A stretch of 64,000 bases of DNA from NCBI RefSeq assembly GCF_000027125.1, contig NC_017626.1. One strand, given 5' to 3'. Position numbers and translations under genes: made by a program. This stretch comes from Escherichia coli 042. GTDB lineage: Bacteria; Pseudomonadota; Gammaproteobacteria; Enterobacterales; Enterobacteriaceae. Each line of letters opens with the position of its first letter. Position 1 is the first letter of the stretch. Under the pieces are notes generated by a model, which made no database searches, was not told the origin of the DNA, and was given only the letters and a program-made list of their open reading frames with translations. Positions 10,098 through 29,812 of the stretch are shown here, in pieces.

Positions 10098-10146
10098 AAC
10101 GGATGAGATTGCAGAATTAATTACGCACCATTATTATTCTGCTCCC

Positions 10147-10222
10147 GGCCCTTTAGCTCAGTGGTGAGAGCGAGCGACTCATAATCGCCAGGTCGCTGGT
10201 TCAAATCCAGCAAGGGCCACCA
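10147..10222 (+). tRNA. ileZ: tRNA with CAT anticodon, Ile2 (lysidine)-type or Met
   Basis: 76-nt cloverleaf: acceptor ggccctt/aagggcc, T-arm gctgg-ttcaaat-ccagc, anticodon loop ctCATaa, 3' CCA; close to recalled E. coli tRNA-Ile2. Confidence 0.85.
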
Positions 10223-10229
10223 TCACATA

Positions 10230-10306
10230 CCGCCATTAGCTCATCAGGAAAGAGCGCCAGCCTTCGAAGCTGGTTGCGCGGAGTTCGGGTCCCCGAAGGC
10301 GGTCCA
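10230..10306 (+). tRNA. tRNA-Arg (anticodon TCG as read)
   Basis: 77-nt cloverleaf: anticodon stem ccagc/gctgg with loop ctTCGaa, 3' CCA; one mismatch each in acceptor and T stems. Confidence 0.6.
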
Positions 10307-10319
10307 TTATCTGTATCCT

Positions 10320-10396
10320 GCGTTGTTAGCTCAGCCGGACAGAGCAATTGCCTTCTAAGCAATCGGTCACTGGTTCGAATCCAGTACAACGCGCCA
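10320..10396 (+). tRNA. tRNA-Arg (anticodon TCT)
   Basis: 77-nt cloverleaf: acceptor gcgttgt/acaacgc, T-arm actgg-ttcgaat-ccagt, anticodon loop ctTCTaa, 3' CCA. Confidence 0.85.
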
Positions 10397-11371: not shown

Positions 11372-13225
11372 ATGGCATTTAAACACTATGACGTGGTCAG
11401 GGCGGCATCGCCGTCAGACCTTGCGAAACGACTGACACAAAAACTGAAGGAGGGCTGGCAGCCGTTTGGTAGTCCGGTGGCCATAACCCCTTATACCCTG
11501 ATGCAGGCGATTGCAGCAGAAGGTGATGTGGTCGTCAGTGGTGCAACTGAGCCGGAGTGGTACTACGTCATCGTACTGGCCGGGCAATCCAATGCCATGG
11601 CTTACGGTGAAGGGCTTCCGCTTCCGGATTCATACGATGCGCCCCATCCGCGCATTAAGCAACTGGCCCGTCGTAACACAGTGACTCCCGGTGGTGAAGT
11701 ATGCGTATTTAACGACATCATTCCTGCTGACCATTGTCTGCATGATGTTCAGGATATGAGTACGATTAACCATCCCCGGGCTGACCTGAGCAAAGGGCAG
11801 TACGGCTGTGTCGGACAGGGCTTACATATTGCCAAAAAACTGCTTCCGTATATCCCTAATAATGCGGGGATCCTGCTGGTACCATGCTGTCGTGGTGGTT
11901 CGGCATTCACCCAGGGCACGGAGGGGACATTCAGCGAGTCCACGGGAGCCAGTCAGGATTCGGCTCGCTGGGGAGTGGGTAAGCCGTTATATCAGGATCT
12001 GCTTTTCCGCACGAAGGCAGCATTGCAGAAAAACCCGAAAAACGTTTTGCTGGCGATATGCTGGATGCAGGGGGAATTCGATATGACGAATGCCAGTTAC
12101 GCCCAGCAGCCAGCAGCATTTCTTGCAATGGTACAGCAGTTCCGTGCTGACCTTGCCGGGCTGGCAGCGCAGTGTCACGGTGGAAGTCCGGCATCAGTCC
12201 CCTGGATTTGTGGCGACACGACATACGCGTGGAAACAAGAACACGGTACGCAATATGAAGTGGTATATGGTGCATATAAAGGTAAAGAATCCCAGCAGAT
12301 TTATTTTGTTCCCTTTATGACCGATGGTAGCGGAGTTAATACACCGACAAACAACCCGTCAGAAGATCCTGATATTGCCGGGTCTGGTTATTACGGTTCG
12401 GCATCCCGAACGAACAAAAACTGGGTATCATCAAATCGCCCGACGCATTTCAGCTCATGGGCGCGTCGTGGCATTATTCCCGATCGTATGGCAACTGCTA
12501 TTCTGAACGTAGCCGGTCGCACCTTAGCCTTCATTAGTGGTAAGGCACCGGAAATCAAACCCTCGCCCGGCGGCGACACGCCATTGGGGCCGTCTGAAGA
12601 TGCATCCATACGCACAATCTCCCTGTTGCCGACAGCCGGAGACGCTGCTGCGCAGGGCTGGAGCATTAAGAATGGCGGAATTCAGTTGTCAGATGGTGTA
12701 TTTAAGATCACCAAGCAGAGCAATAAAGCCTGGTCCCTGACGCGCCCGGTGGATGACGCAGTCTCCCTGCTGACACGGGGTGGCAGACTGAGCTGTAAGT
12801 TTCGACTGTCAGGCGCACTGACCAACAATCAGTTCGGTCTGGGAATTTATCTGTATACCGATGTAGCGTTACCTGACGTCGTGGCGATGACCGGGACTGG
12901 TAACCCGTTCCTGATGTCGTTCTTCACCCAGACCACAGACGGCAAACTGAATCTGATGCATCACAAGAAAGCAGGAAACACAAAGTTGGGCGAGTTCGGG
13001 AATTACAGTAACGACTGGCAGACGCTGGAGCTGGTGTTCACCGCCGGCAGTGCCACGGTTACTCCGAAACTGAATGGAGTGGCTGGCCCGGCATTCCAGG
13101 TCATAAAAGACAGTCTGACACTGGGGCTGAATGCGCTGACGCTGACGGATATTACCAAAAATGCAGCGTATGGCGTTGAGATAGAAAGTCTGGTGCTGGA
13201 GATAAATGCACCGGCATCATCATAA
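11372..13225 (+). CDS. Phage NanS-p-like sialate O-acetylesterase (DUF1737 + SGNH hydrolase)
   Basis: 617 aa; N-terminal MAFKHYDVV... and GQSNAMAYGEG esterase motif; occupies the post-tRNA position before the lysis genes. Confidence 0.75.
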   Translation: MAFKHYDVVRAASPSDLAKRLTQKLKEGWQPFGSPVAITPYTLMQAIAAEGDVVVSGATEPEWYYVIVLAGQSNAMAYGEGLPLPDSYDAPHPRIKQLARRNTVTPGGEVCVFNDIIPADHCLHDVQDMSTINHPRADLSKGQYGCVGQGLHIAKKLLPYIPNNAGILLVPCCRGGSAFTQGTEGTFSESTGASQDSARWGVGKPLYQDLLFRTKAALQKNPKNVLLAICWMQGEFDMTNASYAQQPAAFLAMVQQFRADLAGLAAQCHGGSPASVPWICGDTTYAWKQEHGTQYEVVYGAYKGKESQQIYFVPFMTDGSGVNTPTNNPSEDPDIAGSGYYGSASRTNKNWVSSNRPTHFSSWARRGIIPDRMATAILNVAGRTLAFISGKAPEIKPSPGGDTPLGPSEDASIRTISLLPTAGDAAAQGWSIKNGGIQLSDGVFKITKQSNKAWSLTRPVDDAVSLLTRGGRLSCKFRLSGALTNNQFGLGIYLYTDVALPDVVAMTGTGNPFLMSFFTQTTDGKLNLMHHKKAGNTKLGEFGNYSNDWQTLELVFTAGSATVTPKLNGVAGPAFQVIKDSLTLGLNALTLTDITKNAAYGVEIESLVLEINAPASS

Positions 13226-25623: not shown

Positions 25624-26376
25624 ATGGCAACACCAAATCCCCTGGAGCCAGTAAAAGGTGCCGGTACCACTCTGTGGGTTTACAACGGCAAGGGTGATGC
25701 TTATGCAAACCCGTTGTCAGACGCTGACTGGCAGCGACTGGCTAAGGTGAAGGATCTGACGCCGGGCGAGATGACGGCAGAATCCTACGATGATAACTAC
25801 CTGGATGATGAAGACGCAGACTGGACCGCGACCGGGCAGGGGCAGAAATCTGCAGGTGATACCAGTTTTACGCTGGCCTGGAAACCGGGAGAGGAAGGTC
25901 AGAAAGGGCTTATAGGCTGGTTTGAAAGCGGCGATGTCCGGGCCTATAAAATCCGTTTTCCGAATGGCACGGTGGATGTGTTTCGTGGCTGGGTCAGCAG
26001 TATCGGTAAGGCCGTGACGGCGAAAGAAGTGATCACCCGCACGGTGAAAGTCACTAACGTGGGTAAACCTTCTGTAGCGGAAGAACGCAGCAAAATTACG
26101 CCGGTCAGTGCGATTAAGGTGACGCCGACATCCGGTACGGTGGCAAAAGGGAAAACAACCACCCTGACGGTTTCTTTTGAGCCGGAAAGTGCAACCGACA
26201 AGACGTTCAGAGCGGTTTCCGCCGATCCGTCGAAAGCCACCATTAGTGTGAAAGATATGACAATTACGGTAAACGGCATGGCGACAGGTAAGGTGCAGAT
26301 CCCTGTGGTGAGCGGAAATGGTCAGTTCGCCGCAGTGGCTGAAGTCACCGTTACTGAAGCGGGCGCTGCAGGGTAA
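25624..26376 (+). CDS. V: Major tail tube protein V (with C-terminal Ig-like domain)
   Basis: 250 aa, lambda V size and position. Confidence 0.9.
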
Positions 26377-26389
26377 ACGGAGGTAATAC

Positions 26390-26821
26390 ATGTTTCTGAA
26401 AACAGAACAATTTGAATATAACGGTGTGTCTGTCACGCTTTCCGAATTGTCTGCGCTGCAGCGTATCGAGCATCTTGCCCTCCTGAAACGGCGTGCAGAA
26501 CAGGCAGAATCCAGCGGCAACCTGCAGGTAAGCGTGGAAGATCTCGTCAGAACCGGCGCGTTTCTGGTGGCGATGTCCCTGTGGCATAACCATCCGCAGA
26601 AAACGGGGTCACCGTCAATGAATGAGGCCGTGATGAAGATAGAGCAGGAAGTGCTCACCACCTGGCCTGCCGATGCCATTGCCCGGGCGGAAGACGTGGT
26701 GTTGTGCCTGTCCGGGATGATCGAAGCTGTTCGTCCGGATACTGATATTACTGAAGTGGCGAAAAATAACACGCTGACTGATGATGATTTTTCTGCGGGA
26801 AAGTCTTCGACGGCGAGCTGA
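26390..26821 (+). CDS. G: Tail assembly chaperone G
   Basis: 143 aa; ends ...DDFSAGKSSTAS just after the slippery heptamer. Confidence 0.9.
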   Translation: MFLKTEQFEYNGVSVTLSELSALQRIEHLALLKRRAEQAESSGNLQVSVEDLVRTGAFLVAMSLWHNHPQKTGSPSMNEAVMKIEQEVLTTWPADAIARAEDVVLCLSGMIEAVRPDTDITEVAKNNTLTDDDFSAGKSSTAS

Positions 26822-27261
26822 ACTTTGCCCTCAGACTGGCGCGTGAGATGGGGAGACCCGACTGGCGCGCCATGCTTGCCGGGATGACATCCACCGAATA
26901 TGCCGACTGGCACCGTTTTTACCGCACGCATTATTTTCAGGATACCCAGCTGGATATGCATTTTTCCGGGCTGACGTACGCTGTACTCAGCCTGTTTTTT
27001 TGCGATCCGGATATGCATCCCTCTGATTTCAGTCTGCTTGTCCCCCGGCATGAGGAAGAGCAGGTGGAGAGGCCGGATGAGGACAAAATGCTGATGCAGA
27101 AAGCGGCAGGACTTGCCGGAGGCGTCCGGTTCGGTGGGGACGGAGGGCGCGATATTTTATCGTCTGCGGATGTGGCGGATGTCATGGTGGATGATGCCGC
27201 ATTAATGATGGCTTCAGCGGGGATTCCGGGAGGTGTGAGATATGTCCCAGCCGGTTGGTGA
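26390..27261 (+). CDS. T: G-T fusion made by -1 programmed ribosomal frameshift
   Basis: G GGA AAG slippery heptamer at 26797-26803; the -1 frame is open from the slip site to 27261. Confidence 0.8.
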
Positions 27262-29812
27262 TCTTGTTATTGACCTTAGTCTGGATGCTGTCCGTTTCGA
27301 TGAGCAGATGAGCCGGGTAAGGCGTCATTTTTCAGGTCTGGATACCGACGCCAGAAAAACCGCCAGTGCTGTTGAACAGGGCCTGAGCCGCCAGGCGCTG
27401 GTTGCACAAAAAGCCGGGATTTCCGTCGGGCAGTATAAAGCGGCCATGCGAACCCTGCCCGCACAGTTTACGGATATCGCCACGCAGCTTGCCGGTGGTC
27501 AGAATCCCTGGTTGATCCTGCTGCAACAGGGCGGTCAGGTGAAGGACTCCTTCGGCGGGATGATCCCCATGTTCAGGGGGCTTGCCGGTGCGATCACCCT
27601 GCCGATGGTCGGGGTCACCTCGCTGGCGGTGGCGACAGGTGCGCTGGCGTACGCCTGGTACCAGGGCGACGCCACGCTTTCAGAATTTAATAAAACGCTG
27701 GTCCTTTCCGGCAATCAGGCCGGACTGACTGCCGATCGTATGCTGACGCTCTCAAGAGCCGGGCAGGCAGCAGGGCTGACGTTTAACCAGGCGAGAGAGT
27801 CACTGGCAGCCCTGGTGAATGCCGGTGTGCGTGGTGGTGAACAGTTTGATGCCATCAACCAGAGTGTCGCGCGTTTTGCGTCTGCATCCGGAGTGGAGGT
27901 AGATAAAGTCGCTGAAGCCTTCGGGAAGCTGACCACTGACCCGACGTCGGGACTGATGGCGATGGCGCGCCAGTTCCGTAACGTGACGGCAGAGCAGATT
28001 GCGTATGTTGCACAACTGCAGCGTTCCGGAGACGAGGCCGGGGCCTTACAGGCGGCGAACGATATCGCCACGAAAGGCTTTGATGAGCAGACCCGTCGCC
28101 TGAAAGAAAACATGGGAACACTGGAGACCTGGGCGGATAAAACAGGGAAGGCATTCAAATCGATGTGGGATGCCATTCTGGATATCGGTCGTCCGGAATT
28201 CTCAGCGGATATGCTCGCCAGTGCACAGAAGGCATTTGATGAGGCGGATAAAAAATGGCAGTGGTACCAGAGTCGGAGCCAGCGCCGCGGTAAAACCTCC
28301 TCTTTCCGGGCCAACCTTCAGGGCGCATGGGATGACCGGGAAAATGCCCGTCTGGGTCTGGCAGCGGCAACGCTGCAGTCGGATATGGAAAAAGCCGGTG
28401 AACTGGCGGCAAGGGACAGGGCTGAGCGTGAGTCGTCACAGCTGAAGTATACCGGAGAGGCGCAGAAGGCGTATGAGCGCCTGCTGACGCCACTGGAGAA
28501 ATATACCGCCCGGCAGGAAGAGCTGAATAAGGCCCTGAAAGACGGGAAAATCCTGCAGGCGGATTACAACACGCTGATGGCGTCGGCAAAAAAGGATTAT
28601 GAGTCGACGCAGAAAAAGCCGTCCGGTGTGAAGGTGTCTGCCGGTGAGCGCCAGGAAGACCAGGCGCATGCAGCCCTGCTGGCGCTTGAAACTGAGCTCA
28701 GGACGCTGGAGAAGCACAGCGGTGCGAATGAAAAAATCAGCCAGCAGCGCCGTGATTTATGGAAAGCGGAAAATCAGTATGTGGTCCTGAAAGAGGCCGC
28801 CACGAAACGGCAGTTATCTGAGCAGGAAAAATCCCTGCTGGCTCATGAGAAAGAGACGCTGGAGTACAAACGCCAGCTGGCTGAGCTGGGCGACAAGATT
28901 GAACACCAGAAGCGGCTGAATGAGCTGGCACAGCAGGCGGCGCGGTTTGAACAGCAGCAAAGCGCGAAGCAGGCGGCAATCAGCGCAAAAGCCCGCGGCC
29001 TCACCGACCGTCAGGCGCAGCGGGAGTCGGAAGAGCAGCGCCTTCGTGAGGTGTACGGTGATAATCCGGCTGCGCTGGCGAAGGCCACATCGGCACTGAA
29101 GAACACCTGGTCTGCGGAGGAGCAGCTTCGTGGAAGCTGGATGGCCGGGATGAAGTCCGGCTGGGGCGAGTGGGCGGAAAGTGCGACGGACAGTTTTTCG
29201 CAGGTTAAAAACGCGGCCACGCAGACCTTTGATGGTATTGCACAGAATATGGCGGCGATGCTGACCGGCAGTGAACAGAACTGGCGCAGCTTCACCCGTT
29301 CCGTGCTGTCCATGATGACAGAAATTCTGCTTAAGCAGGCAATGGTGGGGATTGTCGGGAGTATCGGCAGCGCTATTGGCGGGGCTGTTGGTGGCGGCGC
29401 ATCCGCGTCAGGCGGTACAGCCATTCAGGCCGCTGCGGCGAAATTCCATTTTGCAACCGGAGGATTTACGGGAACCGGCGGCAAATATGAGCCAGCGGGG
29501 ATTGTTCATCGTGGTGAATTTGTCTTCACGAAGGAGGCAACCAGCCGGATTGGTGTCGGCAACCTGTACCGCCTGATGCGGGGCTATGCGGAAGGTGGTT
29601 ATGTGGGCGGTGCCGGAAGTCCGGCGCAGATGCGGCGGGCTGAAGGCATTAATTTTAATCAGAACAATCACGTGGTGATTCAGAACGACGGTACGAATGG
29701 TCTGCCAGGTCCACAGATGATGAAGGCAGTGTATGACATGGCCCGCAAGGGTGCCCGTGATGAAATTCAGGCACAGATGCGCGATGGTGGTCTGTTCTCC
29801 GGAGGTGGATGA
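27242..29812 (+). CDS. H: Tail tape measure protein H
   Basis: 856 aa, lambda gpH size and position; coiled-coil-rich with Gly-rich C-terminal region. Confidence 0.9.
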   Translation: MSQPVGDLVIDLSLDAVRFDEQMSRVRRHFSGLDTDARKTASAVEQGLSRQALVAQKAGISVGQYKAAMRTLPAQFTDIATQLAGGQNPWLILLQQGGQVKDSFGGMIPMFRGLAGAITLPMVGVTSLAVATGALAYAWYQGDATLSEFNKTLVLSGNQAGLTADRMLTLSRAGQAAGLTFNQARESLAALVNAGVRGGEQFDAINQSVARFASASGVEVDKVAEAFGKLTTDPTSGLMAMARQFRNVTAEQIAYVAQLQRSGDEAGALQAANDIATKGFDEQTRRLKENMGTLETWADKTGKAFKSMWDAILDIGRPEFSADMLASAQKAFDEADKKWQWYQSRSQRRGKTSSFRANLQGAWDDRENARLGLAAATLQSDMEKAGELAARDRAERESSQLKYTGEAQKAYERLLTPLEKYTARQEELNKALKDGKILQADYNTLMASAKKDYESTQKKPSGVKVSAGERQEDQAHAALLALETELRTLEKHSGANEKISQQRRDLWKAENQYVVLKEAATKRQLSEQEKSLLAHEKETLEYKRQLAELGDKIEHQKRLNELAQQAARFEQQQSAKQAAISAKARGLTDRQAQRESEEQRLREVYGDNPAALAKATSALKNTWSAEEQLRGSWMAGMKSGWGEWAESATDSFSQVKNAATQTFDGIAQNMAAMLTGSEQNWRSFTRSVLSMMTEILLKQAMVGIVGSIGSAIGGAVGGGASASGGTAIQAAAAKFHFATGGFTGTGGKYEPAGIVHRGEFVFTKEATSRIGVGNLYRLMRGYAEGGYVGGAGSPAQMRRAEGINFNQNNHVVIQNDGTNGLPGPQMMKAVYDMARKGARDEIQAQMRDGGLFSGGG

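Follow-up and report, generated by a model that had tools for sequence, protein, structure and literature searches.

How the two overlapping reading frames G and T of an Escherichia coli 042 prophage, flanked by genes V (tail tube) and H (tape measure), are expressed is the question raised by this locus; public annotations list them as separate genes. The window, i.e., the whole analysed stretch of DNA, comprises 64,000 nucleotides, and Pfam assignments within it give the gene order Z-U-V-G-T-H of a lambdoid prophage tail module. The original prediction had recognized a canonical lambda-type G-T shift site here and had used it to support the calls for G and for a G-T fusion. This claim is supported by the gene order, by matches to equivalog profiles, by the identity, register and position of the heptamer, and by 71% identity of the fusion with its lambda counterpart. 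We therefore give a probability of about 0.93 to the reading that programmed -1 ribosomal frameshifting takes place at this site and yields the G and GT tail assembly chaperones of a lambda-like prophage. The anatomy, homology and conservation of the site are direct observations. The features considered below are as follows.

25624..26376, + strand: gene V homologue, major tail tube protein (Pfam Phage_TTP_12, 1.9e-69, plus Big_2)
26379..26383, + strand: Shine-Dalgarno sequence GGAGG, 6 nt ahead of the G start codon (read from the sequence)
26390..26821, + strand: gene G, tail assembly chaperone, zero-frame product of 143 aa starting at ATG 26390 (open reading frame; Pfam Phage_TAC_2, 1.6e-49; NCBIfam TIGR01674)
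26797..26803, + strand: slippery heptamer G GGA AAG, -1 shift site (identical to lambda 10109-10115)
26803..27261, + strand: T segment in the -1 frame, whose first codon, GTC, re-reads G26803 and which ends with TGA 27259-27261 (open frame; TIGR01715; Pfam Phage_tail_T)
26390..27261, + strand: predicted G-T fusion of 290 aa, join(26390..26803, 26803..27261) (conceptual translation)
26811..26881, + strand: candidate mRNA stem-loop, 7 nt past the heptamer (folds, RNAalifold, pair counts, codon-resampling null)
27242..29812, + strand: gene H homologue, tape measure protein, whose start overlaps the end of T (Pfam TMP_2, 3e-69, and Tape_meas_lam_C)

The heptamer GGGAAAG is indeed read at 26797-26803, inside the G/T overlap. 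Because 26797 is the third codon base of the ORF starting at 26390, the zero-frame reading at the site is GCG GGA AAG, which places G GGA AAG in the X XXY YYZ register, and it is the one in-register motif of this type in the whole G ORF. Upstream of it lie 137 codons of the G ORF and downstream five sense codons, AAG being followed by TCT TCG ACG GCG AGC TGA; the stop, TGA 26819-26821, is thus the sixth codon after AAG, the distance originally given. The -1 frame is open from 26788 to TGA 27259-27261, as had been noted, with 152 open codons beyond the heptamer, and a stop in this frame between 26803 and 26848, which would have spoken against the prediction, is absent. The occurrence of the heptamer does not in itself distinguish the locus, as its count in the window (6) is at the chance frequency found in shuffled sequences (8.5 +/- 3.1). 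Only one of the six copies, that at 26797-26803, combines a position close to the end of a long ORF with an extended open -1 frame. Three consecutive TGA codons occur in the -1 frame at 26779-26787, arising from a GAT GAT GAT run in G and directly preceding the 9-nt lead-in to the heptamer; T is therefore reachable only from a 34-nt stretch. No upstream Shine-Dalgarno-like stimulator is visible in the 30 nt before the heptamer. On the - strand, a 444-codon open reading frame (25717-27051) lies opposite V, G and T; nothing suggests that it is a gene, and it probably results from the composition of the sense strand.

The two parts of the predicted fusion are recognized by separate protein models. 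The G ORF matches the TIGR01674 phage_lambda_G equivalog with 161.5 bits (cutoff 74.45) over residues 1-138, and the TIGR01715 phage_lam_T equivalog is matched with 209 bits by fusion residues 143-252. The G model ends on the heptamer-encoded lysine and the T model starts four residues later, i.e., the two models abut at the heptamer. Pfam assigns Phage_TAC_2 to residues 1-119 and Phage_tail_T to residues 167-245 of the fusion, while PHROG 32165 matches it end to end (1-290/290). A search of PDB sequences with the G-T fusion found no solved structure. Elsewhere in the window, at 10147-10396 on the + strand, there are three tRNA genes (Met-CAT, Arg-TCG and Arg-TCT), a cluster that presumably forms part of this prophage's late-gene region, a location also known from Stx-type lambdoid phages.

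What the site would do can be proposed by analogy with lambda. In lambda, the G/GT shift takes place at G GGA AAG, with the ribosome staying in the zero frame in about 96% of cases (PMC3296357). This heptamer is among the most shift-prone in E. coli (PMC5009743; PMC6924986). By the same scheme, most ribosomes on the prophage mRNA would stay in the zero frame and terminate at 26819-26821, so that the 143-aa chaperone G is made, and a few percent (about 4%, if the lambda rate applies) would slip back one base with tRNA-Gly on GGA and tRNA-Lys(UUU) on AAG. The tRNAs would re-pair with GGG and AAA, and reading would go on in the -1 frame to 27261. The resulting 290-aa G-T fusion is expected to use its T part to recruit the tail tube protein to the chaperone-coated tape measure. 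The roles of the two products are likewise taken from lambda, in which the G parts bind the tape measure protein and the T part binds the tail tube protein, neither product being found in the virion (PMC5009743). The lambda G:GT ratio is about 30:1 and is critical for tail assembly (PMC5009743). If the same holds here, the ratio set by the site would make it a requirement for the production of infectious particles from the prophage.

The locus is widespread. Phages PhiR12_1 to PhiR12_5 share 99% identity with the 872-bp G-T segment, prophages of many E. coli chromosomes share 100%, and a match to the segment is present in 3708 of the 5426 complete E. coli genomes. As the first scan for related loci returned almost only identical sequences, more diverse loci were collected by querying with divergent T proteins. 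The aligned position of the shift site does not change across the 248 related loci taken from phage genomes and IMG/VR. The motif at this position varies. The lambda group and the window have G GGA AAG, certain Stx1 and Stx2 phages have A AAA AAG, and phi80, N15, mEp213, LLS, Klebsiella phages, cdtI and Gifsy have G GAA AAG; in distant members of the cdtI/Gifsy clade the motif is G GCA AAA TAG or G GAA AAA TAG, in which a stop codon immediately follows the Lys codon. The heptamer variants differ greatly in intrinsic slipperiness and may set different G:GT ratios. Variant shift motifs lie at the following positions.

Loci L091 and L092: 799-805 in each
Loci L083-L087: about 701-709
Loci L344-L353: about 601-610

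Several of these loci show peculiarities of their own. In the Klebsiella phage Kp4865-4 group (L086 and relatives), the zero-frame TAG (columns 17-19 of G-T alignment A2) comes two codons after the heptamer, not five, which shortens the overlap. Some copies are damaged: the IMG/VR locus L301 has a 1-nt insertion in the T frame, and in E. coli strain 1579 (NZ_CP103718.1, 2109068-2110650) the match to the locus is broken in two, the annotation there showing an IS200C transposase. Constraint on synonymous change was calculated from 161 distinct G-T sequences: the observed/expected ratio is lowest (0.4-0.55) at about 26789-26840 and then rises to 0.8-1.0. Within this minimum, the ratio is still 0.44 at 26822-26836, a segment past the G stop and past the dual-coding overlap, so that the dip runs about 15-20 nt beyond the end of that overlap.

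The fusion could be dispensed with if T were made alone, by initiation at ATG 26848 (the start used in RefSeq) or ATG 26872 (that used in phage PhiR12_1), the heptamer being incidental. Such starts have entered the databases, in which T is listed as a separate CDS: in both GenBank and RefSeq (PGAP) records of the same sequence, T is a stand-alone CDS from ATG 26848 or 26872 and the 290-aa fusion is omitted. The stand-alone T annotations are:

26848-27261 in the window
12459-12872 in locus L253
3483-3872 in locus L002

The sequence around these codons argues against such a mechanism. There is no Shine-Dalgarno sequence at a usable distance, as ATG 26848 is preceded by CTGGCGCGTGAG, in which GAG abuts the ATG. 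ATG 26848 is also not conserved, being replaced by TTC (Phe) in the phi80/N15 group. Although it is the first start codon in the -1 frame, TIGR01715 begins 11 codons upstream of it, and the T equivalog profile together with the conserved peptide starts 11 or more codons upstream, in a stretch devoid of start codons: no ATG, GTG or TTG was found in the -1 frame between 26788 and 26847. The motif EL.F.L.LARE, located upstream of ATG 26848, is conserved in relatives down to about 40% identity. With conserved T peptide upstream and no start codon before ATG 26848, that part of T can be translated only by ribosomes coming from G. Moreover, the products in lambda are gpG and gpGT (PMC5009743). Independent initiation of T is thus highly improbable and was rejected. 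The other way to dispense with ribosomal slippage would be loss of a base in the RNA through transcriptional slippage. Homopolymer runs can indeed make RNA polymerase slip, but nothing specific to this site points to it; the runs here are only AAA or GGG, and RNA polymerase slippage is known on runs far longer than 3 nt. The shift rate in lambda, in addition, responds to modification of tRNA-Lys, which is a ribosomal effect (PMC3296357). The shortness of the runs led to rejection of this explanation, which we regard as scarcely credible, even less so than independent initiation. The programmed ribosomal shift is hence the preferred reading, and the G and 290-aa G-T gene calls are confirmed. 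The site itself is already known, a textbook feature, and nothing new is offered beyond an annotation correction; its practical value lies in that correction, the fusion being missing from public records.

A debatable issue within the ribosomal reading is whether the shift is boosted or tuned by an mRNA stem-loop at 26811-26881, as in signals built of a heptamer, a spacer of 5-9 nt and a stable stem-loop or pseudoknot, like that of dnaX. The original prediction had proposed looking for a downstream stimulatory structure, and a stem-loop is predicted, although its stimulatory role is unproven and a consensus structure is absent in the sister clade. In the predicted fold, an outer helix pairs 26811-26818 with 26874-26881 and an inner helix pairs 26837-26844 with 26865-26872. 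The segment of 97 nt that follows the heptamer has a predicted folding energy of -41.4 kcal/mol, with z of -3.6 against dinucleotide shuffles (-38.7 kcal/mol and -2.1 for the lambda equivalent), and the 75-nt window from 26810 is the most stable along the G-T mRNA (-38.2 kcal/mol). Against resampling of synonymous codons, the segment 26803-26901 has a z of -2.8 and the structure by itself one of -2.65; if the dual-coding part is kept constant, these values become -2.4 and -2.1, respectively. However, even the codon-resampled sequences fold to about -32 kcal/mol. Over 13 relatives, the mean z is about -2, as compared to about -0.6 in a control segment, but the values for lambda (-1.5), Stx1_9793 (-1.0) and Gifsy-1 (-0.3) are not significant. 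Comparative evidence also lies on both sides. From 72 distinct sequences, RNAalifold recovers both helices independently, and 93.5% of the cells in these sequences are paired, while sliding the partners lowers this share to 21-43%. At pair 22/90, 63 sequences have A-U and nine have G-C, and the pairing is never broken; it is, however, the sole clean double change and amounts to one clade-level event, so that covariation is thin. At the remaining variable pairs, C and U alternate opposite G, a pattern that transition bias is expected to produce, and half of the pairs are invariant. The inner helix is the palindrome GGCGCGCC, which is largely forced by the conserved peptide LAR...WRA. The reduced synonymous ratio at 26822-26836 described above counts in favour of the structure.

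The evidence from the sister clade is less favourable to the stem-loop. For 34 distinct cdtI/Gifsy sequences (52-100% protein identity), the consensus fold has only -2.3 kcal/mol, WRAM is replaced by WRRM, and the helix is lost without compensation; Gifsy-2 and similar individual members form strong but non-homologous helices. An Rfam scan of 26300-27400 at E <= 1 returned only a chance lncRNA hit and no curated RNA family at the site. The phage G-T shift is, furthermore, held to need no stimulator, according to a 2016 review (PMC5009743). The helices are kept within the lambda/phi80/N15 clade and the conserved structure is absent in the cdtI/Gifsy clade; a boosting or tuning role of the stem-loop is considered unlikely, albeit far less so than either rejected explanation of the shift. 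A clade-specific modulatory stem-loop is accordingly a possible but unproven and rather doubtful proposal. The specific form of it, in which the G-T shift of the lambda/phi80/N15 clade, including this prophage, is tuned by a conserved two-helix mRNA structure 7 nt past the heptamer, is a shade less probable than a stem-loop effect in general. If true, two-helix tuning would run against the accepted view of a stimulator-free phage G-T shift, and the G:GT ratio would be set jointly by the structure and by heptamers of unlike slipperiness (G GGA AAG, A AAA AAG and G GAA AAG).

The programmed ribosomal shift at this site has parallels at different distances. In HK97, Mu, P2 and other long-tailed phages, a pair of overlapping ORFs separates the tail tube gene from the tape measure gene, as is the case here. 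Their tail chaperones come in a shorter and a longer form, in a constant proportion (PMC5009743). The sequences of these phages are unrelated to the present ones and the shift is sometimes of another type, e.g., -2 in Mu (PMC3458567), whereas the window locus is a direct sequence homologue of lambda. A cellular parallel is provided by E. coli dnaX, with which the site shares the tandem slippage on an X XXA AAG heptamer decoded by tRNA-Lys(UUU), and the stem predicted here is placed at a similar spacer length (7 nt). The dnaX signal consists of A AAA AAG, an upstream Shine-Dalgarno-like element and a downstream stem-loop. Its shift reaches about 50% and depends on the stimulators (PMC6924986; PMC3711429). 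In contrast, the G-T shift is of a few percent, the Shine-Dalgarno-like element is missing upstream and the downstream structure is only a candidate.

Closer to the window are the gp14-gp15 pairs of phi80, N15 and mEp213, with homologous G and T and the shift site at the same aligned position; they differ in the heptamer, which is G GAA AAG, so that only the A-site tRNA-Lys re-pairs well. The records of N15 and LLS carry an explicit slippery-sequence annotation. The closest of the known systems is lambda itself, whose G/G-T programmed -1 frameshift was reportedly described by Levin, Hendrix and Casjens in 1993 and by Xu, Hendrix and Duda in 2004, 2013 and 2014. In lambda (NC_001416), the heptamer lies at 10109-10115 and has the register and the six-codon distance from the G stop that are seen in the window, which bears out the conservation originally claimed and settles the comparison with the lambda site that had been suggested. 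The 15-nt block around the site, TTTCTGCGGGAAAGT, is identical in lambda and the window, the gene order V-G-T-H is the same, G and T belong to the same equivalogs, and the identity between gpGT of lambda and the fusion extends across the junction. There are also differences: the C-terminal 25 or so G residues before the site are unrelated in sequence, T ends with ...GGVRYVPAGW here and with ...GGVRYG in lambda, and the fusion has 290 aa as compared to 279. In lambda, a GTG that was used for the annotation of T stands in the -1 frame right after the heptamer; in the prophage this codon is GTC.
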